DNA of 64,000 nucleotides from Bacteroidota bacterium. Lineage in GTDB: Bacteria > Bacteroidota > Ignavibacteria > Palsa-1295. The notes beneath the pieces are model-generated. The model did not search any database. It saw only the letters and a program-made list of their open reading frames with translations, and was not told where the DNA came from. Of this stretch, positions 2,978 to 53,421 are shown piece after piece. How positions within the stretch are numbered: position 1 is the stretch's first letter; each line of letters opens with the position of its first letter. The stretch spans positions 450,510-514,509 of the forward strand of contig JAJPIO010000009.1 in NCBI GenBank assembly GCA_021324735.1, in the 5' to 3' direction. The translations under genes and the position numbers were made by a program.

Positions 2978-3289
2978 ATGGCTCGAACTCCGATCAAAAA
3001 GCGATTAAAGCGTATTTTGCGCTCCCCGCGATTGCTGCTTATTACAGCGATCCTGACGGTGCTTGGTACCACATTGCTATTTGCGAACAAAGGGTTATGG
3101 CGCCATATAGCACTGCGGCATGAGATCAGCGATCGAAAAGAATATCTTGCGAAATTGCAGCGCGATGAAAATGAGGTTAATCGCAGGGTCAACCTTCTCA
3201 AATTGGAAGACGCTTCCATGATAGAACGAATCGCTCGCGAGCGCTATAACTTGAAGCGCCCGGGCGAAATTATTTTCAAAGAAAATTAA
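2978..3289 (+). CDS. Septum formation initiator (FtsB/DivIC family) cell-division protein
   Basis: The start is taken at MARTPIKKRLKRIL (ATG 2978). There is a single TM segment (LLLITAILTVLGTTLLF) and then a coiled coil KEYLAKLQRDENEVNRRVNLLKLEDASMIERIARERYNLKRPGEIIF, which is the classic FtsB signature. The upstream 2840 start of the ORF track is probably spurious. Confidence 0.7.
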   Translation: MARTPIKKRLKRILRSPRLLLITAILTVLGTTLLFANKGLWRHIALRHEISDRKEYLAKLQRDENEVNRRVNLLKLEDASMIERIARERYNLKRPGEIIFKEN

Positions 3290-3363
3290 GTAGGAAGTAC
3301 GTTAAGCGATAAACGGGTTAAGAAGTAGGAGTTGGCTTCTGCTCGTTATATACTTCTTAATCC

Positions 3364-4308
3364 ATGATACTTGGTGTAGATATTGGAGCAACGACGATCA
3401 AGTTGGGAGTGGTGGATACCCAGAGGGGTGAAATTGCCGCGGAGGCTTCCTTACCTACTCCACAACAAGGATCGCTCTCTGTCGCTCATGCAATAGCCGA
3501 GCGCACAAAAGAATTTTTGGCCGCATATCCGGAAATTAGATTGCTGGGTGTGGGCGTCCCCGGGTCGATGAATATCGATCGCTCGCTCGTTCGTTATCCA
3601 CCGAATTTATTAGGTTGGAAGGAAGAACCACTTCGCGATCATTTAAAGAGAGAACTCCCTCAGTTTAAAAAGATCGAAGTTGATAATGATGCTAATGTTG
3701 CTGCTTTAGCGGAGGCATATCATGGTGCAGGTAAAGGCGCATCTCACTTTTTACTGGTAACACTCGGAACGGGCGTTGGCGGTGCGATCTATATATCAGA
3801 AGAGAATTTTAAGGGTATAGTACGAGGCGCTTCCGGTGGTGCCGGAGAATTTGGTCATACTTCGATCGATCTCAACGGACCTACTTGCCAGTGCGGCTCG
3901 AGAGGATGCATCGAGGCATATCTTGGTATTCATTATCTAGCAGAACGGACGAGGAAAAAATTACTCGAGAACCCTGGCATTGTATCTTCGTTGCGAGAAA
4001 ATATAGAGATACTTTCGCCAAAGCTTATTGCTTCTGCCATGAACTCCGGTGATCGATTCGCAAGAACGGTCTTTGAAGAAGCCGGTAACTTTCTCGGTGC
4101 TGCATTGGCGAACGTTGCAAATCTGTTGGATATTCATGTATTCATCATTGGCGGTGGTGTTGCGGAGGCGGGAGACGTCTTATTCGATGCAGCCTTTGAT
4201 TCGCTACGTTCGCGAGTGCTTGAAAACTTAAAGCCGGTCGTAGAGATACATCGGGCAAAGTTTGGCAATCGAGCCGGCATTATTGGGGCGGCGATGATGG
4301 TCTCATAA
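3364..4308 (+). CDS. ROK-family sugar kinase (glucokinase-like)
   Basis: MILGVDIGATTIKLGVVD is the N-terminal ATPase motif. GHTSIDLNGPTCQCGSRGCIEAY is the ROK zinc-binding CxCGxxGC motif. Confidence 0.85.
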   Translation: MILGVDIGATTIKLGVVDTQRGEIAAEASLPTPQQGSLSVAHAIAERTKEFLAAYPEIRLLGVGVPGSMNIDRSLVRYPPNLLGWKEEPLRDHLKRELPQFKKIEVDNDANVAALAEAYHGAGKGASHFLLVTLGTGVGGAIYISEENFKGIVRGASGGAGEFGHTSIDLNGPTCQCGSRGCIEAYLGIHYLAERTRKKLLENPGIVSSLRENIEILSPKLIASAMNSGDRFARTVFEEAGNFLGAALANVANLLDIHVFIIGGGVAEAGDVLFDAAFDSLRSRVLENLKPVVEIHRAKFGNRAGIIGAAMMVS

Positions 4309-23667: not shown

Positions 23668-24194
23668 TTATGCTGGTGGCCGAAATCCTATGGGACGGCG
23701 TGGCCGCTCGTCGGCAGCGATCATCTTTTTGATCGCGTCGAATACAACTTGGAAGTTCTTATCGTACTTTCTTTCCAGCTCCTCCAGTTTGCGAGCCAGT
23801 TCACGATGGGCCGTTAGCCACGTTCGCATTTGGACGAACGTTCGCATGATCGCGATATTGACATCGATAGCCTGCTTGCTGTTGAGAATTCCGGAGAGCA
23901 TGGCGATACCTTGCTCTGTGAAGGCAAAGGGAAGGTATTTCGAATGCCCCCGCGCTTTAAGGTCACAGATTGTGATCTTAAACGGTGAGACTCCTCCACA
24001 GTCAACTCGAACATAAAGTCCTATGGGAAGCGCCGCAAATGCCGCCGAACAGATTGTTTCAGGACCCGAGTTGAAACGCCGTATTATCGTGCGAGATCGG
24101 CGTCTAAAATGACGCGCTCTCCTCGAATGAAGTAAATGTGAGAGGCAATGACCTCCTCGCGAAGCGCTACGGCATGGGTAGATTGGTTTTGCAT
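23668..24194 (-). pseudogene. ORF6N (KilA-N-like) domain protein pseudogene with two in-frame stops and a +/-1 frameshift
   Basis: Hand translation of the minus strand gives MQNQSTHAVALREEVIASHIYFIRGERVILDADLAR*YGVSTRVLKQSVRRHLRRFP*DFMFELTVEESHRLRSQSVTLKRGG, then a frame switch to KYLPFAFTEQGIAMLSGILNSKQAIDVNIAIMRTFVQMRTWLTAHRELARKLEELERKYDKNFQVVFDAIKKMI. This is collinear with the Bacteroidota ORF6N-protein pattern as recalled (...IRG..V.LD.DLAELYGV.T..LNQAV.RN..RFPEDFMF.LT.EE...LRSQ......GGRRYLPYAFTEQGVAMLS.VL.S..AI.VNI.IMRAF). TAA (24084-24086) replaces the Leu codon and TAG (24021-24023) replaces the Glu codon. The frameshift is at the C5/G5 run at 23947-23951. Confidence 0.65.
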
Positions 24195-24602
24195 AGAGGA
24201 CCGAGTTTGAAAACCTCTGCAAAATTACGAAAATGTCCCTCGATTCACAGCAAGCAGAACCAGTGTTCGGACATGGCCAGCACATCCCAGCGAGCGAAGG
24301 CAAGGCCCCGAACACCATCTGGGGCCGTCCTCGAACGGCTGTTTGATCTCGTGGAGGGGAAGCAGCAGACGAGGGTGGAGGAGCGGTAGGGACGTGCCTT
24401 CGGCGCGTCCACTGTGGGGATTAGATAACGTCAGTCAACAAGATGAATTGGCGGGCAGCAGGATTTGTAAATCGCAAGGAGCGTTATGATTGAGCACGTG
24501 ACAGCATTTCGGCATTCCCCACGCTGGACGTACCGGAGGTACGTCCCTACCGACTTAGGACCAAGCCACATTAAGACGGATTAATCGTCGGAATTGTGCG
24601 CA

Positions 24603-25520
24603 TTATGTAGTACTTTGAGGAGGCTGTTTCTTTAATGGGACAGTTGCTTGTACGCGGTCATAGAGTAGCTCTTTTAAATTAGCCGGGTTAGAGTAGAAAA
24701 TGTGGCTATAAGCTTTTGTATCAAAATGGAGCTTTTCTTTTTCCTCGATCTTGCAACACCAAACCACTGGTATTCCAAGACCGAGTGCAAAGCCCGCCTC
24801 GAAATAGCAACCACCTCGCTGACCTGTGAAATCAGCTACGACCAAGGAGCTGCGTCGTATTTCAGCCATGATTTTATCATTGATATTATCATTGTGCTGA
24901 GCAGCCTTTAGCATCATGGGGCTATATCCTGCTCTTTCGAGTGCAGGCTTAATACCGTTCGCCCAAACATCATCCATACTATCATCAAACCACATCGCCA
25001 CAAACGCTTGGTTTCCGAGCGGCGTTGTTTCCCGCAAATGTACTGCTCTGGCCCAACCGCTAAGTGTTGGCAAGAACTGTTCAACATAGCCACTCCCTCC
25101 CTCCAGTTCGAGGTAGCCCAACTCCGCCGCCTTATTCAGCCAATACCCCAACTCGTTCGGATCACAAGCGACCCAGATGGGGTATAGTATTTCTTCATCA
25201 AGAACGAACCGCTGATCCATCCGCTCAAGGCCGTCATAAAGGGTTCTAATGACGTTATCAATGGCTTCGAACAAGTTCGATGGCCTTCGAACCATACTTG
25301 CGATTTGCTCCTGCCCCTCAGTCTGTATTTCTATCCTTCGGCCGTTGTCCCATGCGAGGCGAGTCGCTGCGCTTAAAAGATAGCCAGCAACTTTTAATTC
25401 GCTGTGATATGCTTCTGGCGTGATGACGTACTGTCCGCATGTTCGGCACTTCATGCCGTAGGCCTCTCTCCCGCTAATCTCGCCACCCTCGGCTTCTTTT
25501 CCACAAAGTTTACAATTCAT
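24603..25520 (-). CDS. Gene B of a candidate conflict/defense operon: N-terminal zinc ribbon plus C-terminal nucleoside 2-deoxyribosyltransferase-like (SLOG/NDT-fold) domain protein
   Basis: 305 aa. The N-terminus MNCKLCGKEAEGG...KCRTCGQYV carries CxxC...CxxC. The C-terminal roughly 130 aa (AFVAMWFDDS...IMAEIRRSSLVVADFTGQRGGCYFEAGFALGLGIPVVW) match the NDT/DNPH1-fold pattern: hydrophobic beta1 before a Gly-rich turn, then D..G.....E.G.A.A.GKPV with the catalytic Glu. The central roughly 100 aa were not recognised. GC is about 42-45 %, lower than flanking DNA. Confidence 0.55.
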   Translation of the reverse strand: MNCKLCGKEAEGGEISGREAYGMKCRTCGQYVITPEAYHSELKVAGYLLSAATRLAWDNGRRIEIQTEGQEQIASMVRRPSNLFEAIDNVIRTLYDGLERMDQRFVLDEEILYPIWVACDPNELGYWLNKAAELGYLELEGGSGYVEQFLPTLSGWARAVHLRETTPLGNQAFVAMWFDDSMDDVWANGIKPALERAGYSPMMLKAAQHNDNINDKIMAEIRRSSLVVADFTGQRGGCYFEAGFALGLGIPVVWCCKIEEKEKLHFDTKAYSHIFYSNPANLKELLYDRVQATVPLKKQPPQSTT

Positions 25521-25578
25521 TTTACGTCAATCGTTAAGATAGGGTGAATCTCAATTCCGCTTTCGTCGTGCCGCCAAC

Positions 25579-26580
25579 CTACACGGTTTCCTGGGCGCTT
25601 GGCTCGGGTTGCTGATTGCCTTGTAAACGCTGAACATATCTGAGCTTCTTCTCAATTTCGCAATAAGCATTACGAATTCTAGTTTCTTCGCAACCTAGTT
25701 CGATTAGCGCATCAATCGTCGCCTGTAATCGGTTTTCCGCCGATTGGTGCTCGATTATACTCGCCCAAAAGTGATGTGGCGTTGCTGAAGCAAGTACCGA
25801 TTCATAATGCAAGAAAGTAAATGCTTCGGCTGACTCAGCTAACTCCTCGACTACTTTTAGGCACCGTTCCGCACATTCCGTTTTCAGACGAGAATTGAAA
25901 TCCCCAAAGACCGTCCATTCTCTTGCTAGGATGCGTCTCTGCTCTTCCTGAAACCATGTGTGAAAGCCCTCGATCTTAGCCTGATACTCGGTGAAGATGT
26001 CTTTCACGTTCAAGGGTTGATTTTGCTTCTGTAGAAAGCTCCGCGCAGATGCCTTCCAGGCGTAGCCCTCAAGAAGCTTTTTTGGAATGAGTTGCACCTG
26101 GATAATCAGACCGTCAGGGTTAAAAATATAATTAGTATTTAATTCAGGCGGTCGATAATGCACAAAGTAATCTCGAAGATCATGCATGAATCGTATCAAT
26201 TCATCTTTCGCCAGCTCATCCTTTCGTCGCTCGTAATCCGGCATCAACGTTGACCCATGCTCACGATATAGGTTCCTTGTGTGATCAGCTAAAGTTTTGA
26301 CAGCAGCTAAGTAATTGAAAATCAATAATACAATATTTTCTCTAAAAGCCAGTCCCCAAACTTTTTGCTGATTTGTGTGAAATTCCAGAAATCTCTGAGG
26401 GTTGGTGAAGTCTTCGATTGCCTTTTGCAGCATGAAATAATTTCTATCGACAAGCTTATATAAAATGTTAAGTCGAAGGCTGTTTTCAACACTCGCGACC
26501 TCTTTGCTTGCCATTCTTTCCCTATAAAGCGCCGACACCCCTTCAGTGTGCAAGATTGTTTGTCCTTCGTGAATATTCAT
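25579..26580 (-). CDS. Gene A of the candidate conflict/defense operon: helical hypothetical protein (possible HEPN/Abi-like)
   Basis: 333 aa, predicted mostly alpha-helical. It contains TRNLYREHG (an Rx5H arrangement, compatible with a HEPN motif) and many conserved-looking aromatics. GC is about 35-40 %, clearly lower than neighbouring housekeeping genes at 55-60 %. It is first in a two-gene minus-strand operon with gene B across a 58-bp gap. No family assignment is possible without a search. Confidence 0.45.
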   Translation of the reverse strand: MNIHEGQTILHTEGVSALYRERMASKEVASVENSLRLNILYKLVDRNYFMLQKAIEDFTNPQRFLEFHTNQQKVWGLAFRENIVLLIFNYLAAVKTLADHTRNLYREHGSTLMPDYERRKDELAKDELIRFMHDLRDYFVHYRPPELNTNYIFNPDGLIIQVQLIPKKLLEGYAWKASARSFLQKQNQPLNVKDIFTEYQAKIEGFHTWFQEEQRRILAREWTVFGDFNSRLKTECAERCLKVVEELAESAEAFTFLHYESVLASATPHHFWASIIEHQSAENRLQATIDALIELGCEETRIRNAYCEIEKKLRYVQRLQGNQQPEPSAQETV

Positions 26581-26961
26581 GCTCGGCCAGTCAAGCGCTA
26601 CTTATTGCTTTCGCACAAGTGTGCGGGATACATTGAATGAAATCACCTTCAGGGTCGAAGAGTTGGATGATCGCTCACCCTTGAGGAACATTATATAAAC
26701 CGGTCGGCAAATTTCGGAGTTCGCACAATTATTAGAGTAGGTATGGAGTAGTTGCCGCCAATACAAAGACGCCTCCGATCGAGACAGCCTCATTTCGTAG
26801 GTCCTATTCGAATTTGCAATAGGTGTTTGCTGGGTTTGTCGCGGAAGATGCAGCGTTCAGTTTGCCATGTCCGCCCCCCGGGATGCCATCTGTTTTGCCC
26901 TAAAGCGGAATGAACTCAATTGCATCGAAGATGAGTTAGGCGAACCAGTACGATCCCCACA

Positions 26962-27552
26962 TTGCCGCCCACGATATTCAAGATGACCTTTCAGGAATAC
27001 CTTAGTTATTTCAATCAGTCGCTAACTTCGCTTAATACGACCGAGATCGGTCAATTTCTCGATCTGCTGGTCGATGCCTATGAGAACGACCGTACCGTGT
27101 TCGTCATCGGAAACGGTGGCAGCGCGGCCAATGCGTCGCATTTTGCCAATGACCTGGCGAAAGGTACGCTCCGCTCGATGGACCAGCCGAAGCGCCTACG
27201 GGCATTATCGCTGACCGATAACGTCGCGCTCATGACCGCGTATGGTAATGATGAAGGCTACGCGACGATCTTCGAGCAGCAATTGCGGACCTATGCTCGT
27301 CCCGGCGATATTGTCGTTGCGATCTCGGGCTCGGGTAATAGCCCGAATGTGATCTCCGCGATCGAGTGGGCCAATGCGAACGGTCTTCACACCGTAGGGG
27401 TCACCGGTTTTGCAGGCGGCAAACTCAAGCAGATCGCCTCGACGACGGTCCACGTCCCGCTCAATGATATGTGCACCTCCGAAAGCGTGCACTCGGTCAT
27501 TTTCCATTATGTCGCGATCGAATTACCGAAGCGACTGTATAAAGAATCGTAG
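26962..27552 (+). CDS. gmhA: SIS-domain phosphoheptose isomerase (D-sedoheptulose 7-phosphate isomerase, GmhA-like)
   Basis: VFVIGNGGSAANASHFANDLAKG and DIVVAISGSGNSPNVISA are SIS-domain motifs. Length is about 190 aa. An alternative start MTFQEYL lies at 26983. Confidence 0.8.
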   Translation: MPPTIFKMTFQEYLSYFNQSLTSLNTTEIGQFLDLLVDAYENDRTVFVIGNGGSAANASHFANDLAKGTLRSMDQPKRLRALSLTDNVALMTAYGNDEGYATIFEQQLRTYARPGDIVVAISGSGNSPNVISAIEWANANGLHTVGVTGFAGGKLKQIASTTVHVPLNDMCTSESVHSVIFHYVAIELPKRLYKES

Positions 27553-27720
27553 CCGTGACCTTTAGGTCACGGCGAATTGAGGATGCGTCTGTAGCCGTAA
27601 CATTTATGTTACGGCGAATTGAGGATGTGCACCATGTTATTGAAACCATGTCCATGGCCGGCGGTGCGTTTCGCCGTGACCTGAAGGTCACGGCTACGAA
27701 TCACGGCTACGAAATCACGG
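27549..27720. repeat. Cluster 1 of REP-like self-complementary 22-bp hairpin repeats (three copies) with conserved flanks
   Basis: GCCGTGACCTTTAGGTCACGGC is at 27551-27572, GCCGTAACATTTATGTTACGGC at 27593-27614 and GCCGTGACCTGAAGGTCACGGC at 27672-27693. Each has 9-10-bp perfect arms. The conserved flanking string cgaattgaggatg.g..ccatgtt.ttgaaaccatgt.catggc.g.cggtgcgtttc and the trailing ggctacgaa(a)tcacg motif (tandem) are shared with cluster 2. Confidence 0.8.
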
Positions 27721-27726
27721 AATCTA

Positions 27727-27939
27727 CTATCTCCCGTTATTTGCTGCTAAAGGATTGGAATAGCTGAAGGAGCGTAGGTCAGCGCGGGAGGATGCGTGTT
27801 CCATCGTAATGGAGATAAGATTTCCCTGATGGTCGTACTCCGCAAGGGTGTTCTCATCAAGATCGCGCGTGCTTTCAGCATCCGCTGATGCGAATTCTAC
27901 AAGCAACGTGTCGGTGTCTTGAAAGTATGTGACTTTCAT
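27727..27939 (-). CDS. DUF2283-family protein (putative antitoxin of the DUF4258/DUF2283 pair)
   Basis: 70 aa. MKVTYFQDTDTLLVEFASADAESTRDLDENTLAEYDHQGNLISITMEHAS is the canonical DUF2283 pattern (MKITYD.E.D.LYI.L). Confidence 0.7.
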   Translation of the reverse strand: MKVTYFQDTDTLLVEFASADAESTRDLDENTLAEYDHQGNLISITMEHASSRADLRSFSYSNPLAANNGR

Positions 27940-27958
27940 CGCTTAGAGGAGATATGGG

Positions 27959-28201
27959 TCAATCTGGCTTGCGGAATGACCGATCGAAAAAGGCATTATG
28001 TACGGTCTCTCCATCAGGCAGGATAACAACCCTAAGCCATTTATTGTTTGCCTCGGAAATCCTGGCCCATCGTCGAATTCGGCCGTCCGATTGAATGGTT
28101 TCCCATTCTGGATTCATCATAACTCGCTGAATCCATTCAACTTCGATCCAATCGCGATCGGGAGCCGCATGTCGGTACTTGAAATATTCAGTGAATTTCA
28201 C
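27959..28201 (-). CDS. DUF4258-family protein (putative RelE/ParE-fold toxin)
   Basis: 80 aa. ...ETIQSDGRIRRWARISEANNKWLRVVILPDGETVHNAFFDRSF matches the DUF4258 C-terminal HNAFFDR motif. It lies immediately upstream of the DUF2283 gene on the same strand with a 19-bp gap. Confidence 0.7.
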   Translation of the reverse strand: MKFTEYFKYRHAAPDRDWIEVEWIQRVMMNPEWETIQSDGRIRRWARISEANNKWLRVVILPDGETVHNAFFDRSFRKPD

Positions 28202-28217
28202 GATGCCTTCCTAATTG

Positions 28218-28380
28218 TAGCCGTGACATTTATGTCACGGCGAGTTGACGGATGCGTACCATGTTGTTGAAACCATGTTCATGGCGGTCGGTGCGTTTCG
28301 CCGTGACCTAAAGGTCACGGCTACGAAATCACGTGGTATGTTTCGCCGTAACCTAAAGGTTACGGCTACGAAATCACGCT
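28218..28380. repeat. Cluster 2 of REP-like self-complementary 22-bp hairpin repeats (three copies)
   Basis: GCCGTGACATTTATGTCACGGC is at 28220-28241, GCCGTGACCTAAAGGTCACGGC at 28300-28321 and GCCGTAACCTAAAGGTTACGGC at 28345-28366. The inter-hairpin sequence is about 85 % identical to cluster 1, in the same orientation. Clusters 1 and 2 bracket the TA pair. Confidence 0.8.
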
Positions 28381-29245
28381 ACCTAAGGGCTGATTCGAGT
28401 GCAGTCCGAGCGTCCGTCTTTTCGTCGCGATATTTAATAATGATCGGGGAGTAGAGGGAGAGTCCCTGCTCTCGGGCGAACTCCGATTTCTTTCCTACGA
28501 AGCGAGAGCCAGCTACTATAACCGCACCCTCGGGGACAATCAATGGCTCATTCTCATTTGCTCGAGAAATTACTTTGCCGTTCACCAGATCGTAGATCGG
28601 CGTCGAGCCGGTAAGGACCACACCGGATGCCAATACTGCTCGCTTCTTAATAACACATCCCTCGTAAACTCCGGTATTGCCGCCGAGCAGTACATCATCT
28701 TCGATAATGACCGGCAGCGCACCCGCTGGTTCGAGAACGCCACCGATCTGTGCAGCGGCGCTGATATGAACGCGTTCACCTACCTGTGCACAGCTTCCCA
28801 CGAGCGCATGGGAATCGATAAGGGTACCGGAGCCAACATACGAGCCGATGTTTACGTAGGAGGGCGGCATCATGATGACACCCGCCGCCAGATGGGCTCC
28901 ATCGCGTACAGTGCTTCCGCCCGGCACGATGCGAACGTTATCCTCAACGAAAAAGCCATGTAAGGGCACCGTGTCTTTATCGAAGAAATGCCATCCTTGC
29001 GGAGCTTTCAGTTCTTCGAGCCGGCCAAGTCTGAATCCCAGCAGAATACCTTGCTTGATCCACGCATTTACTCGCCAGCCGCTCGTAGCAGAGGAGTCCG
29101 GTTCAGCGGATCGGATCTCCGCCTTATTCAGTGCCAGTCGTAGGCGAAGGACTGCACTTACTGCAGAATCGCGGTGCAAATTGATCTCTTCCGTCGTGAG
29201 CGGAAACAGCTTTTCAATAGTTTGGCGGAGTTCGTCGAGGTTCAT
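28379..29245 (-). CDS. dapD: 2,3,4,5-tetrahydropyridine-2,6-dicarboxylate N-succinyltransferase
   Basis: The start is at MNLDELRQTIEKLF (ATG 29245); the 40-aa ORF-track extension is rejected because it spans a terminator. Left-handed beta-helix hexapeptide repeats (GSYVGSGTLIDSHALVGSCAQVGERVHISAAAQIGGVLEP...) and the N-terminal helical domain match the DapD pattern. Confidence 0.85.
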   Translation of the reverse strand: MNLDELRQTIEKLFPLTTEEINLHRDSAVSAVLRLRLALNKAEIRSAEPDSSATSGWRVNAWIKQGILLGFRLGRLEELKAPQGWHFFDKDTVPLHGFFVEDNVRIVPGGSTVRDGAHLAAGVIMMPPSYVNIGSYVGSGTLIDSHALVGSCAQVGERVHISAAAQIGGVLEPAGALPVIIEDDVLLGGNTGVYEGCVIKKRAVLASGVVLTGSTPIYDLVNGKVISRANENEPLIVPEGAVIVAGSRFVGKKSEFAREQGLSLYSPIIIKYRDEKTDARTALESALR

Positions 29246-29246
29246 A

Positions 29247-29280
29247 AAAAAGAAGCCCCTCTTCCAAACGGAAGAGGGGT
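29247..29280 (-). terminator. Rho-independent terminator downstream of the 29301 lipoprotein gene
   Basis: CCCCTCTTCC-AAAC-GGAAGAGGGG is a perfect 10-bp stem. On the minus strand it is followed by CTTCTTTTTT. Confidence 0.7.
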
Positions 29281-29300
29281 GTAAATTACGATGACAATTA

Positions 29301-30344
29301 TTACTTAACTCGGAAGCTCTGAACCGATTTTTCGAGCGCCGGTCGGAACGCACCTTCCAGCTCATTCGGCCAGGACACGGTAATGCGATAGACCTTCTGG
29401 CCGGACATCACGAAGTAGGCACGCGCGGTCGCGCCGGCCGATCCGTAGCTGATCACTTTTGCCGGTTGGCCGCCCAATGTTGCACTTTGTGCTGTCGCGC
29501 CGTGATACGTTTTCTTGGCGTTCTCGTCCACATATTTGTTTAGGTCGATGCCTTTATCAACCGTATTAGCATCCACGCGGACCATAGCATCGGCGCGTTC
29601 GCCTTTTATCTCGACGCCGCCACCCATCGGCGATGCGTGGAAATTATCGGGATATTGAATGCTAAAACCGCTGCCGTTGAAGGTGGAGAACGTCTGCGAC
29701 GGCTTCATCTGCTCGATCATAGCATTGAGCGAAGCGCTGTCGATCTTGCCGTTTGTTACTTTAAGTACGAACGCCGGCTGCACTGATTTTTCCGCCGCAT
29801 CGAAGATCTGCGCGTACTTCTTCATGCGGTTCTGGCCAAAGGTAGCTGCATCGAAGTAGGTAACGAGCGAGTCCTTATCGGCAAAGATTCTGTAGCCTGT
29901 CAACCCGTCTTCATCGCCCTGGATCGAGTAGCTGATCTTAATGGCCGGCAATCCGCCCAGCGTAGTATTTTCCGGATTGGAAAACGTTACGTTATCCATG
30001 CTCTGCTTGAAGTCATTCGCGACTTTCTCTTTGGTCGAATGCTCCATCGCACCGACGCCGATGCGAGCGCCGTAATCACCTTCGGTAAATTTCTGAAAAC
30101 GGGTTTCAGTCGATGGGGTCGAGTAATAAAAGGTATGTTCACCCGGTACCGACTCGGCTGCCCACGCCTTCGGAGCTTTGAAGCTGAAGCGATAGACAAG
30201 GTCCTTATACGTTACCATTTCGCCGGGCTGGACGGGCGACATATCTTCTTCCTTCTTACCGCAGCCGGCAATTATAGCGATGAGAGCGAGGGATACCAGT
30301 GAGGTAGTAACCCATGACTTCATTCGAAATTCGTGCGTCTTCAT
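29301..30344 (-). CDS. Lipoprotein of unknown function, downstream partner of the MCE/MlaD-like gene
   Basis: The signal peptide and lipobox are LVSLALIAIIAGCGKK. It is a 347-aa soluble domain with no recognised family. It lies 2 bp downstream of the MlaD-like gene. Confidence 0.5.
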   Translation of the reverse strand: MKTHEFRMKSWVTTSLVSLALIAIIAGCGKKEEDMSPVQPGEMVTYKDLVYRFSFKAPKAWAAESVPGEHTFYYSTPSTETRFQKFTEGDYGARIGVGAMEHSTKEKVANDFKQSMDNVTFSNPENTTLGGLPAIKISYSIQGDEDGLTGYRIFADKDSLVTYFDAATFGQNRMKKYAQIFDAAEKSVQPAFVLKVTNGKIDSASLNAMIEQMKPSQTFSTFNGSGFSIQYPDNFHASPMGGGVEIKGERADAMVRVDANTVDKGIDLNKYVDENAKKTYHGATAQSATLGGQPAKVISYGSAGATARAYFVMSGQKVYRITVSWPNELEGAFRPALEKSVQSFRVK

Positions 30345-52305: not shown

Positions 52306-53421
52306 TTATCCGTTCAGCCGGACCGGCATTACGAGCATGAGCAGATCTTCTTCATTCGTGCTTGCCGGCTCGATGATGGCTGCGCGTGTCGGTGTTGAAA
52401 ACTTGAAGGAGATCTCGTCGGTATCGAGGTGCGCAAGAGCGTCTTCGATAAAGCGGCCATTAAAGCCGATCATGAGATCGTCATTGCCATAGTCGCATGG
52501 AATATGTTCCCGTGCTTCATTGCCGGCGTCGAAATTCTCAGCGAGGATCGACATCTGGTCTTTCGCTAACTGAAATTTCAATTGCTTCGTATTCGCATTG
52601 GCAAAGATGGAGACGCGCTTTACCGAACGGAGCATTGCATCCTTCGAAATGATCAGGTGCTTGTCATTCTCACGCGGAATGACAGCCTCGTAGTTCGGAT
52701 ACCGCTCGTCGATGAGACGCGATAAAATGGTCGTCGGGCCGGAGTGGAATTGCACGTGCGTTGGCGAGAAGCTAAGTGCAATGTTATCAGAATCTTCGAA
52801 AGACTTGGAGACTAAGCTCAAGGCCTTAGCCGGCACGATAATATCCAGTTCGGAATCAGTCTTAAGCGTAACATTTGTAAACCGGACCAGGCGATGTCCA
52901 TCTGTCGCTACGGCGCGAGTACCATCCGGAGAGAACTGGAACAGCACGCCCATCATGCTCGGGCGAAGATCGTCTGTAGAGACCGCGAAGACGGTTTTTG
53001 CGATGAGCCGCTTCAGCGTCGAAGCATCCACATTGATCGAACCCTCCGGCTTGAACTCGCTGGCAGCGTTCGGCAACTGCGCCGTTTCATCGACCGAGAG
53101 TTGGTAGTTACCCTGGCTCGTTTGCAAGAGCGCGCGTCGCGTTGTTTTATCGAGCGTAAATGTAAGCTCACCTTCTGGCAGCGCTCGTACGATCTCATAA
53201 AAGAGCTTTGCCGGTATATTCGCAGTGCCGTCCTTTACGCCACTTACTTCCAGTGATGCCGTGACCGTGATCTCAAGGTCCGTACCGGTAAAAGTAAGTG
53301 CATCACCCTTTAGCTCGACGAGCACCGTCTCGAGCTGAGGTAACGTGGACTTACTCGGAATAACGGCGATAACGCGTGCAAGCGTCTCTTGAAGCGGCTT
53401 AATTTGCGCGATGAATTTCAT
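52306..53421 (-). CDS. dnaN: DNA polymerase III beta sliding clamp
   Basis: The start is at MKFIAQIKPLQETL. The three-domain length (about 371 aa) and ...LELKGDALTFTGTDLEITV are typical of DnaN. Confidence 0.9.
   Translation of the reverse strand: MKFIAQIKPLQETLARVIAVIPSKSTLPQLETVLVELKGDALTFTGTDLEITVTASLEVSGVKDGTANIPAKLFYEIVRALPEGELTFTLDKTTRRALLQTSQGNYQLSVDETAQLPNAASEFKPEGSINVDASTLKRLIAKTVFAVSTDDLRPSMMGVLFQFSPDGTRAVATDGHRLVRFTNVTLKTDSELDIIVPAKALSLVSKSFEDSDNIALSFSPTHVQFHSGPTTILSRLIDERYPNYEAVIPRENDKHLIISKDAMLRSVKRVSIFANANTKQLKFQLAKDQMSILAENFDAGNEAREHIPCDYGNDDLMIGFNGRFIEDALAHLDTDEISFKFSTPTRAAIIEPASTNEEDLLMLVMPVRLNG

Follow-up and report, generated by a model that had tools for sequence, protein, structure and literature searches.

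The two hairpin clusters that bracket a small toxin-antitoxin (TA) gene pair in the window (the whole stretch of 64,000 nt analyzed here) are very probably copies of a lineage-specific, GTAG-tagged family of REP/REPIN repeats, copied by a RAYT transposase and inserted beside a TA pair that was already resident.

The 22-nt palindrome GCCGTRAC-N6-GTYACGGC has six exact matches in the 64 kb (starting at 27552, 27594, 27673, 28220, 28300, and 28345), all of them at one locus, and none in the window outside 27552-28366. In 100 dinucleotide shuffles there were no matches, giving an expectation of zero by chance. All six hairpins of the form GCCGT(G/A)AC-loop-GT(C/T)ACGGC that an earlier note on this DNA had described were thus recovered in the interval it gave, and with the arm and loop sizes it reported: either 9-bp arms with a 4-nt loop or 10-bp arms with a 2-nt loop. 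A weak REP-like match at 53258, with three mismatches and no GTAG, was treated as chance.

Each palindrome is the core of a REP unit of ~28-30 nt, consisting of GTAG, a perfect stem of 9-10 bp, a loop of 2-4 nt, and GAA (single-strand form GTAGCCGTGAC...GTCACGGC). An unpaired GTAG precedes the stem and GAA follows it, and this asymmetry of the flanks gives each unit an orientation. Their order is A, A, B in cluster 1 and A, B, B in cluster 2 (B being inverted), and each trimer comprises one inverted doublet, with GTAG outermost, and one extra singlet (Table 1). We propose that the extra singlet of each cluster was made by a short local duplication, with a period of 42 or 45 nt; REP 6 together with 28335-28341 repeats the right end of REPIN 2 at a period of 45 nt. 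The layout of both clusters is BIME-like.

Table 1. Genes and repeats at the hairpin locus (positions in the window)
Feature	Position	Strand	Description
gmhA-like SIS-domain gene	26962-27552	+	Pfam SIS_2, 79 bits; convergent with the TA pair; stop supplied by REP 1
REP 1, orientation A, extra singlet	27549-27576	+	GTAG + GCCGTGACC-TTTA-GGTCACGGC + GAA
REPIN 1, inverted heterodimer, head-head, GTAG outermost	27591-27697	.	REP 2 + 57-nt spacer (27616-27672) + REP 3
REP 2	27591-27618	+	Loop type ACATTTATGT
REP 3	27670-27697	GTAG on -	Right half of REPIN 1
Tandem half-REP array	27688-27720	+	TCACGGCTACGAA(A) x 2.4
DUF2283 antitoxin-like gene, 70 aa	27727-27939	-	Pfam PF10049, 51.7 bits, E = 9.9e-14
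Toxin-like gene, 80 aa	27959-28201	-	Sub-threshold DUF4258 match; >4800 homologues
REPIN 2, inverted heterodimer, GTAG outermost	28217-28324	.	REP 4 + 58-nt spacer (28242-28299) + REP 5
REP 4	28217-28243	+	Loop type ACATTTATGT
REP 5	28297-28324	GTAG on -	Right half of REPIN 2
REP 6, orientation B, extra singlet + GAAATCACG tag	28342-28378	-	Ends 1 nt short of the dapD stop
dapD (tetrahydrodipicolinate N-succinyltransferase)	28379-29245	-	TA pair downstream, same direction

A co-linear core of ~113-135 nt, running in the same direction, is common to both clusters, in agreement with the shared direct units described previously; identity is 91% across an ungapped 78 nt and averages 79% per column when the clusters are compared along their full length, indels included. 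The tandem ggctacgaaatcacg motif that had been placed at the end of every unit is present as such only in cluster 1 (period 13), whereas in cluster 2 the motif merely trails each B-type REP and forms no array. The tandem is a reiterated half-REP, each unit containing the 3' half of the stem and the complement of GTAG; read from the other side, the 13-nt unit is GTAG followed by the 5' stem half. Half-REP arrays of like kind are found in two other loci: nine copies beside a RAYT gene in L052, and six downstream of dapD in L091, where REPs follow dapD and there is no TA pair.

Folding, which had been suggested as a check on the units, gave stable hairpins for single REPs (about -11 kcal/mol, z = -4.8 to -6.6; for REP 1, -11.2 kcal/mol, z = -6.6). 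The arms of both REPINs, 27-33 nt in length, are 93-94% complementary, and the minimum-energy fold of 28215-28335 (REPIN 2) is a single long hairpin (-33 kcal/mol, z = -6.5). A cluster of integron attC sites that has no integrase and carries the TA pair as a gene cassette would have some of the same properties: here too, imperfectly self-complementary units of ~110-120 nt, each folding into a long hairpin, flank a small TA module that has no promoter and point the same way, and TA pairs are frequent cassettes of chromosomal integrons. We nevertheless consider this reading extremely unlikely, given that every arm is itself a perfect GTAG-tagged palindrome, a feature of REPs and not of attC; that direct reading of the units finds no GTTRRRY/RYYYAAC cores; that the doublets are dispersed singly beside unrelated genes and flank RAYT rather than an integrase; and that a relative has the TA pair without the units.

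The spacing of the hairpins is irregular (42, 79, 547, 80, and 45 nt from start to start), they occur in both orientations, and a protein-coding TA pair of 550 nt separates the clusters. A degenerate or miniature CRISPR array therefore has practically no probability, as the earlier note had already judged, although repeat finders may flag short palindromic repeats with short unique stretches between them; the family is moreover dispersed as isolated doublets. An Rfam search (evalue mode) of 26500-29500 returned no repeat match and one chance-level sRNA hit outside the repeats.

Scanning a collection of genomes with a strict REP pattern, we found 74 loci. Seven MAGs of Kapaibacterium-like or Ignavibacteriota-labelled Bacteroidota carry from 4 to ~22 REP loci each, counts that are lower bounds because an exact pattern match was required, and at least 12 loci lie on the complete 3.58-Mb chromosome OY969726.1. 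GTAG stands on exactly one side in 133 out of 145 family members; it is also present in 21 of the 24 copies that were found via RAYT protein look-ups and not via the GTAG pattern. The commonest arrangement in the relatives is an A-(9..44 nt)-B doublet with GTAG outside. The family is depleted from coding sequence and predominantly extragenic: REP midpoints (n = 146) fall within long ORFs in 19% (ORFs of >=150 aa) to 32% (>=100 aa) of cases, compared with 82-90% of bases. The family is thus neither single-copy nor restricted to this locus, two outcomes that the earlier note had named as telling against its proposal, and its REP/BIME-type reading gains from the occurrence of GTAG palindromes as inverted doublets that are dispersed, depleted from coding sequence, and found flanking RAYT genes.

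The same distribution bears on the possibility that the hairpins are cis-regulatory sites that evolved locally, as antitoxin operators or terminators of convergent genes, and are not mobile repeats at all. Such sites could be expected where these stable hairpins lie, just ahead of the TA operon and where dapD, the antitoxin gene, and gmhA end. But the identical motif adjoins unrelated genes at >100 sites in several genomes and is absent both from the REP-free orthologous TA locus (see below) and from 82 other TA loci. The hairpins have no T-run, and a promoter and terminator scan found nothing within the clusters, with overall counts no higher than in shuffles. We judge a purely cis-regulatory origin very unlikely indeed; a secondary part in stabilizing RNA 3' ends would fit the REP explanation and is no competitor to it.

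RAYT genes flanked by these REPs occur in four lineages (L052, L083, L084, and L088). The encoded proteins score 90-95 bits against the NCBIfam model NF047646, "REP-associated tyrosine transposase" (cutoff 80). Scores of 93 bits for this model and 16 bits for the IS200 model NF033573 place the enzyme with the REP-associated type. In the PDB they match E. coli TnpAREP alone (4ER8, E = 3e-8); the HUH motif (DHVHVII) and the catalytic Tyr motif (YILNNPV) of a RAYT of ~160 aa align with those of 4ER8.

One of these genes, P0126 of L084, is a candidate for the RAYT that the earlier note had proposed looking for elsewhere in the genome: it lies on contigs that share their samples of origin (ERZ27279670, SRR5579883) with the window contig, and it is flanked by 10 REPs. 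Among them is a variant with an ACATTTRTGT loop, which out of 172 loci is found only at the P0126 locus and in the window, and the P0126-flanking doublets with this loop have a window-like heterodimer make-up, with a spacer of 51-56 nt. The tetranucleotide usage of the RAYT contig correlates with that of the window at r = 0.906, a value than which some other species are no lower. The common samples, the private REP variant, and the compatible tetranucleotides together suggest a putative assignment of the P0126 contig and the window to one genome; a cluster-member look-up returned no NCBI accessions tying the two contigs to one MAG. The likely own-genome copies that are visible number 16 on the two contigs (six at the window locus and 10 around the RAYT gene).

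The spacer common to the two window REPINs is absent from all other REP loci. The two doublets that contain it (ACCATGTT...CATGG) are only 627 nt apart and, because a 57-58-nt spacer of this kind is seen nowhere else, they could be a local duplication rather than dispersed copies. A metagenome scan with the spacer ACCATGTTNTTGAAACCATGTNCATGG gave no hits in a collection that does not hold even the window contig, and is hence uninformative.

The genes between the clusters had been labelled DUF4258/DUF2283. The DUF2283 label of the antitoxin-like protein stands well above its cutoff of 23 bits, whereas the DUF4258 match of the 80-aa toxin-like protein does not reach its own (16 bits, cutoff 25, E = 0.015). 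DUF4258 is the only family matched by this protein, for which a search of PDB sequences gave no match, and 12 out of 27 of its homologues match the same family at E <= 0.05 (best 3.6e-4), all below the cutoff. On these profile scores the protein resembles DUF4258 and is a putative member.

The clusters directly adjoin these genes and their neighbors, as had been noted. The antitoxin stop is ~7-8 nt from position 27719, at which the conserved repeat sequence of cluster 1 ends, and 15 nt (28202-28216) separate the toxin start, a GTG, from cluster 2. On the outer sides, the gmhA-like gene stops at the TAG (27550-27552) within the GTAG of REP 1, and the dapD stop codon (28379-28381) begins 1 nt past cluster 2.

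A two-gene accessory module hugged on both sides by direct repeats of ~90% identity is what one might expect if the ~150-nt units were the ends, as terminal repeats or recombination sites, of a small mobile cassette or of a composite MITE-flanked element that carried the TA pair in. The privacy of the spacer to the two window copies would fit such an origin, as would the variability of the region downstream of dapD among relatives and the similar bracketing of the L052 RAYT by direct REPIN copies. The closest homologue of the toxin (76% identity), however, lies in the same six-gene order, MlaD-PsbP_2-dapD-toxin-DUF2283-SIS, with intergenic gaps (taken from gene coordinates) of 2, 2, and -4 nt. 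The TA flanks of 2 and -4 nt leave no room for repeats of 160-180 nt: the window clusters are thus insertions, and the TA pair predates the repeats at this locus. The earlier note had entertained the ends of a small cassette and proposed checking whether relatives lack the TA pair; the pair is present in this relative's dapD-gmhA interval, and the suggestion falls. In addition, there is no REP at two loci in other contexts with TA homologues of 71% identity (L089 and L090), nor at 80 further, unrelated TA loci (321 kb), a negative-control set found in a metagenome scan with P0243 as query, in a collection that does not include the contig of the REP-free relative; and many unrelated genes are flanked by the same REPs. 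A cassette origin is accordingly very unlikely. The six dapD relatives at 80-82% identity (L078-L082 and L172) keep the upstream synteny, but they are no empty-site controls because their downstream region differs and has neither the TA pair nor gmhA. We conclude that the TA genes are resident genes, separate from the repeats, and that the pair is bracketed because extragenic slots were there and not because it formed a cassette.

What is known of the family points to a mechanism in which a REP would fold as a single-stranded DNA hairpin during replication and be bound by a single-copy RAYT (TnpAREP), an HUH enzyme related to the TnpA of IS200/IS605, which would be encoded elsewhere in the genome and be itself flanked by the same REPs. 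The enzyme would recognize GTAG, or be guided by it, when it cleaves and transfers the strand, and each doublet would be copied whole into extragenic sites, with a preference for gene 3' ends. RAYT activity in this organism we infer from other systems. At the window locus, the target of the REPIN insertions would have been the older, compact dapD-toxin-antitoxin-gmhA arrangement: two sister copies of one REPIN variant would have entered the near-zero-length junctions dapD/toxin and antitoxin/gmhA, and one REP would thereafter have supplied the TAG stop of gmhA. By analogy with REPs elsewhere, the stable hairpins in the dapD-TA and TA/gmhA 3' transcripts may reduce read-through or shield the ends of the mRNAs. 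The direct repeats, at 90% identity, are also a likely substrate for deletion of the TA pair by recombination.

Perhaps the GTAG-REPIN/RAYT system is currently or recently active in Bacteroidota, with the half-REP arrays as footprints of RAYT cleavage and strand transfer at a GTAG-guided site, and not of replication slippage; we think this rather unlikely. If it were true, segments between REPs of the same orientation, such as the TA pair here and the RAYT gene in L052, would be potential cargo that RAYT could mobilize.

GTAG REPs are known as trimers, as clusters of a dimer and a singleton, and as head-head dimers with 20-100-nt spacers, some of them heterodimers; they supply TAG stops, sit where convergent or co-directional ORFs end, and flank RAYT genes (PMC3733652). 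The repeats described here have the same unpaired GTAG at one end, head-head dimers, trimers, placement at ORF 3' ends, donation of a TAG stop, and flanking of RAYT as those families (PMC3733652), and differ in a lineage-specific stem (CCGTGACC/GGTCACGG) and in their host, a Kapaibacterium-like member of the Bacteroidota. In the 2013 survey of Di Nocera, De Gregorio, and Rocco, GTAG REPs were confined to Proteobacteria, Cyanobacteria, Chloroflexi, and the PVC group; the repeats reported for Bacteroidetes and Chlorobi were all of the CGTC type (PMC3733652).

Similar relationships hold for other systems. In Pseudomonas fluorescens SBW25, REPIN clusters built by tandem duplication lie next to a single RAYT gene (Bertels and Rainey 2011; PMC3116915). 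Inverted REPs and a spacer likewise form one long hairpin here, with doublets dominant, but the visible copies are tens per genome rather than hundreds, and the RAYT-proximal doublets have spacers unlike that of the window, which is found in the window only. Perfectly palindromic REPs with a guide-like GTAG are described from the "REPtrons" of Stenotrophomonas maltophilia and Marinomonas (Corneloup et al. 2021; PMC8266576). With these and with E. coli TnpAREP (4ER8), the present system shares a GTAG-led perfect palindrome and a RAYT of ~160 aa flanked by its own REPs; the RAYT here is only distantly related to the E. coli enzyme. E. coli REPs are bulged, imperfect palindromes. The window clusters resemble E. 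coli BIMEs in having two REP subtypes in alternating orientation, with short linkers, between gene ends, and differ from them in that the palindromes are perfect, there is no sequence relationship, and neither defined linker motifs nor an IHF site was identified; the locus behaves as a BIME cluster would, yet falls outside the E. coli REP/BIME family. The ends of IS200/IS605 elements are alike in their subterminal hairpins, 5' tetranucleotide guide, and single-stranded DNA recognition by an HUH Y1 enzyme. In contrast to those elements, there is no transposase gene between the window hairpins, and the repeats are non-autonomous.

The locus leaves the current understanding of REP function unchanged, and is an ordinary feature in a little-studied lineage. 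The repeats account for two odd intergenic blocks in the annotation and flag spurious small ORF calls, for example a 53-aa gene in L001 (11479-11640); direct repeats bracketing a TA pair would lure automated pipelines to wrong cassette or CRISPR calls. The REP-free orthologous locus provides a clean before/after comparison of insertion into near-zero-length junctions, with a stop codon donated by a REP. The findings add Kapaibacterium-like Bacteroidota, known from metagenomes alone, to the hosts of GTAG-type REP/REPIN-RAYT systems, and the motif could serve for strain typing and for tests of REPIN population dynamics outside Proteobacteria.

The pattern GCCGTRAC-N6-GTYACGGC matches at six positions in the 64-kb window (27552, 27594, 27673, 28220, 28300, and 28345), nowhere else in it, and in none of 100 dinucleotide-preserving shuffles. 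The stems are perfect, with either 10 bp and a 2-nt loop or 9 bp and a 4-nt loop, which bears out the six hairpins described in an earlier note on this DNA, and single units fold at ∼−11 kcal/mol (z = −4.8 to −6.6). The note had overlooked that every palindrome has asymmetric flanks, GTAG on one side and GAA on the other; the units (REPs) are therefore oriented, as A or B. Cluster 1 reads A, A, a 57-nt spacer, and inverted B, and cluster 2 reads A, a 58-nt spacer, and two inverted B units, so that each comprises one inverted doublet (REPIN) with GTAG outermost and one extra singlet, the product of local duplication with a 42- or 45-nt period. REPIN 2 forms a single long hairpin whichever strand is folded (−33 and −31 kcal/mol, z about −6). 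The two similar units in direct orientation claimed in the note are recovered by a repeat finder and pairwise alignment as a common co-linear core of ∼113–135 nt (91% identity over 78 nt).

Features of the repeat locus and of related loci and proteins
Feature	Location	Strand	Remarks
Accessory genes	window 23668–26580	−	three genes, just past gmhA
gmhA-like SIS gene	window 26962–27552	+	left of cluster 1
Cluster-spanning ORF	window 27497–27691	−	
Cluster-spanning ORF	window 27555–27767	+	
REPIN 1	window 27591–27697		cluster 1
Half-REP tandem array	window 27688–27720		cluster 1; TCACGGCTACGAA reiterated, 13-nt period, 2.4 copies
DUF2283 protein (antitoxin)	window 27727–27939	−	clear Pfam match, 51.7 bits vs. 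cutoff 23
80-aa protein (toxin)	window 27959–28201	−	>4800 homologues, many phyla
REPIN 2	window 28217–28324		cluster 2
Cluster-spanning ORF	window 28245–28454	+	
dapD	window 28379–29245	−	right of cluster 2
Half-REP array	L052 5349–5484		nine copies, beside RAYT
63-nt direct repeat	L052 5228–5290, 6105–6167		87% identical
Half-REP array	L091 3132–3211		six copies, after dapD
Second RAYT-like gene	L049 90–791	−	212–234 aa
P0122			RAYT homologue, 83% identity; contig of REP-bearing MAG CAVZOL
P0145			RAYT homologue; 1.9-Mb contig of REP-bearing MAG CAWBEI
P0121	L083		RAYT homologue, 84%; REP-flanked there too
P0126			RAYT homologue, 65%; contigs from ERZ27279670 and SRR5579883

The clusters occupy both intergenic spaces almost wholly. 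As the note had it, they abut the stops of gmhA and dapD: the TAG stop of the gmhA-like gene is the TAG within the first GTAG of cluster 1, and the dapD stop codon begins 1 nt past cluster 2. On the inner sides, the conserved repeat sequence of cluster 1 ends about 7–8 nt from the antitoxin stop, and 15 nt separate cluster 2 from the GTG start of the toxin. Of the proposed DUF4258/DUF2283 toxin-antitoxin (TA) pair, flanked by the SIS-domain gmhA-like gene and dapD, the DUF2283 assignment stands; DUF4258, the sole Pfam match of the toxin, is sub-threshold (16 bits vs. 25), and is matched at E ≤ 0.05 in 12 of 27 toxin homologues. The toxin has no PDB sequence match. Three ORFs of 64–70 aa cross the clusters, reading the palindromes as ...RRDLKVTAT...; one is entered as a 53-aa gene in a JGI record (L001 11479–11640). 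These calls are almost certainly spurious and caused by the repeats.

The note had also considered the repeats as the ends of a small cassette and proposed checking whether relatives lack the TA pair between the clusters. We reject a TA cassette bounded by the repeats. The contig of the closest toxin homologue (P0243, 76% identity) carries MlaD, PsbP_2-like, dapD (2132–2998), toxin (3001–3240), DUF2283 (3243–3461), and, on the opposite strand, the SIS gene (3458–4033). This is the six-gene order of the window, with the TA pair in place and no room for the repeats: The dapD/toxin, toxin/DUF2283, and DUF2283/SIS junctions measure 2, 2, and −4 nt, vs. 177, 19, and 174 nt in the window. The TA pair therefore preceded the repeats at the locus, and both clusters arrived afterwards, inserted into junctions of practically no length. 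One of them remade the gmhA stop codon from the REP's GTAG; such TAG donation is known for GTAG REPs (PMC3733652). In other contexts, homologues of the TA pair with 71% identity (L089 and L090) lack REPs, as do 80 further TA loci (321 kb). Locus L091, with a dapD 81% identical, has a REP doublet and six half-REPs immediately after dapD and lacks the TA pair; other dapD relatives have no REP within 6 kb, and their downstream region differs.

Relatives with about 80% dapD identity (L078–L082, L091, and L172) keep the MlaD–PsbP_2-like–dapD synteny, and what follows dapD varies from each examined lineage to the next: a CPSase-like gene, a gene for a 1012-aa protein, TIR_2, glyoxalase, or the TA pair with gmhA. 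The interval on the 3′ side of dapD is a variable spot, where rearrangement or insertion recurs. The three accessory genes past gmhA have a defence-like look. They encode a 305-aa protein, Cys-rich at the N-terminus and resembling TIR effectors at the C-terminus (PADLOC PDLC00733, E = 1.6e-13; weak Pfam matches to Nuc_deoxyrib_tr and TIR_2), a 333-aa protein that matched no family, and a 216-aa protein of candidate defence family PDC-S05 (E = 4.9e-24). GC content falls to 0.42–0.45 at 25600–26600. Downstream of its dapD, relative L081 encodes another TIR_2 protein, unlike this one, so the interval could be a small, variable island of defence genes.

The window is of metagenomic origin; identical copies are present in JGI 3300027965, ENA ERZ27279670, and Logan SRR5579883, as well as on a contig of 835 kb. 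Scanning one genome per species for GTAGCCGTRAC-N6-GTYACGGC gave 74 loci, about ten of them lone matches in unrelated phyla that look like chance. Seven MAGs that bear the labels Candidatus Kapaibacterium, Ignavibacteriota, or Bacteroidetes account for the remainder, at four to about 22 loci apiece, including at least 12 on the complete 3.58-Mb chromosome OY969726.1; in the lineage, the motif is therefore neither single-copy nor restricted to one locus. Allowing up to two mismatches, the lineage loci hold 145 REP copies, 133 with GTAG on exactly one side, most commonly arranged A-(9..44 nt)-B with GTAG outside. Long ORFs make up 82%–90% of bases yet hold only 19%–32% of the copies.

Searching the fetched loci for motifs revealed an ORF of 160 aa in L052 (Ca. 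Kapaibacterium SMAG_U14065), with REP doublets on both flanks and nine tandem half-REPs. It scores 93 bits against the NCBIfam REP-associated tyrosine transposase (RAYT) model NF047646 (cutoff 80), only 16 bits against the IS200 transposase model, and E = 5.5e-6 against Pfam Y1_Tnp; P0121, P0122, and P0126 pass the RAYT model at 90–95 bits. REPs are linked to RAYT in four lineages. The note suggested looking for a RAYT elsewhere in the genome; this is probably P0126, found in two of the samples holding the window contig. In the PDB, P0126 matches only E. coli TnpAREP (4ER8, E = 3e-8), aligning HUH motif DHVHVII with EHMHCIW and tyrosine motif YILNNPV with YIYINPV. Three doublets lie upstream of its gene and four B-type REPs downstream; the doublets (GTAGCCGTGACATTTATGTCACGGC, then 51–56 nt, then GCCGTAACCTrAAGGTTACGGCTAC) match those of the window in heterodimer make-up and spacer length. 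Among all 172 fetched loci, the ACATTTRTGT-loop variant occurs only at the window locus and on the P0126 contigs. We take P0126 as the probable cognate RAYT of the window's organism because of these common samples, doublets, and private variant; tetranucleotide similarity (r = 0.906) is compatible and non-discriminating.

Locus L049, from the same MAG as the L052 RAYT, carries another RAYT-like gene that is longer than the first (NF047646, 83.5 bits; 34% identity between the two). This gene does not adjoin this REP family, the nearest copy being 2.7 kb off, and may serve another repeat family. In L052, copies of the 3′-terminal part of the upstream gene (...GEYL*) form a 63-nt direct repeat on either side of the whole REPIN-RAYT-REPIN block (about 810 nt). 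The arrangement has the appearance of a long target duplication, or of a tandem duplication that took in flanking DNA, and resembles the bracketing of the TA pair in the window.

The spacers of REPIN 1 and REPIN 2 (57–58 nt) are 90% identical to each other and unrelated to those of RAYT-proximal doublets or to anything in other fetched loci; this makes the two REPINs sister copies of a single variant, either one locally seeded by the other or both derived from a more abundant master copy. A spacer scan of a metagenome collection, from which the window contig itself is absent, gave no match. In three lineages, a 13-nt half-REP (GTAG, the 5′ stem half, and TT: GTAGCCGTGACTT) is tandemly reiterated on the GTAG side of full REPs. 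These arrays could stem from replication slippage or from repeated RAYT nicking and rejoining; we found no description of them in the REP/RAYT literature cited.

The REP/BIME-type reading of the earlier note is upheld by the GTAG tags and doublets of the sequence anatomy, dispersal in the lineage, extragenic bias, and RAYT linkage; insertion polymorphism against the P0243 relative is also observed. The clusters resemble E. coli BIMEs in layout and are not members by sequence: Their perfect palindromes are of the S. maltophilia/Marinomonas type, different from the bulged E. coli type. By the example of the family (PMC3116915, PMC3479197, PMC8266576), the REP hairpin would arise in single-stranded DNA at the replication fork and be bound by the HUH/Tyr RAYT, GTAG would work like the IS200/IS605 guide tetranucleotide in choosing the cleavage site, doublets would be copied as whole units, and clusters would enlarge via short tandem duplication. 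Since gaps of only 2 nt join dapD and the TA genes into an operon in the relative, the clusters possibly attenuate dapD-to-TA read-through; the hairpins might protect mRNA 3′ ends, and the 113-nt, 90%-identical direct repeat could let recombination delete the TA pair.

Every structural trait at the locus is already known for GTAG REPs and REPINs, which include HH heterodimers with 20–100-nt spacers, dimer-plus-singleton trimers, placement at convergent or co-directional 3′ ends, TAG stop donation, and REPIN clusters beside RAYT (PMC3733652, PMC3116915). A 2013 survey recorded GTAG REPs in Proteobacteria, Cyanobacteria, Chloroflexi, and the PVC group, and only CGTC repeats in Bacteroidetes and Chlorobi (PMC3733652); RAYT groups were later recorded in Chlorobia (PMC5581495). 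No paper that connects RAYTs to Kapabacteria or Ignavibacteria turned up in a full-text literature search. What is new is not the structure but the host of this GTAG REP family, Kapaibacterium-like Bacteroidota.
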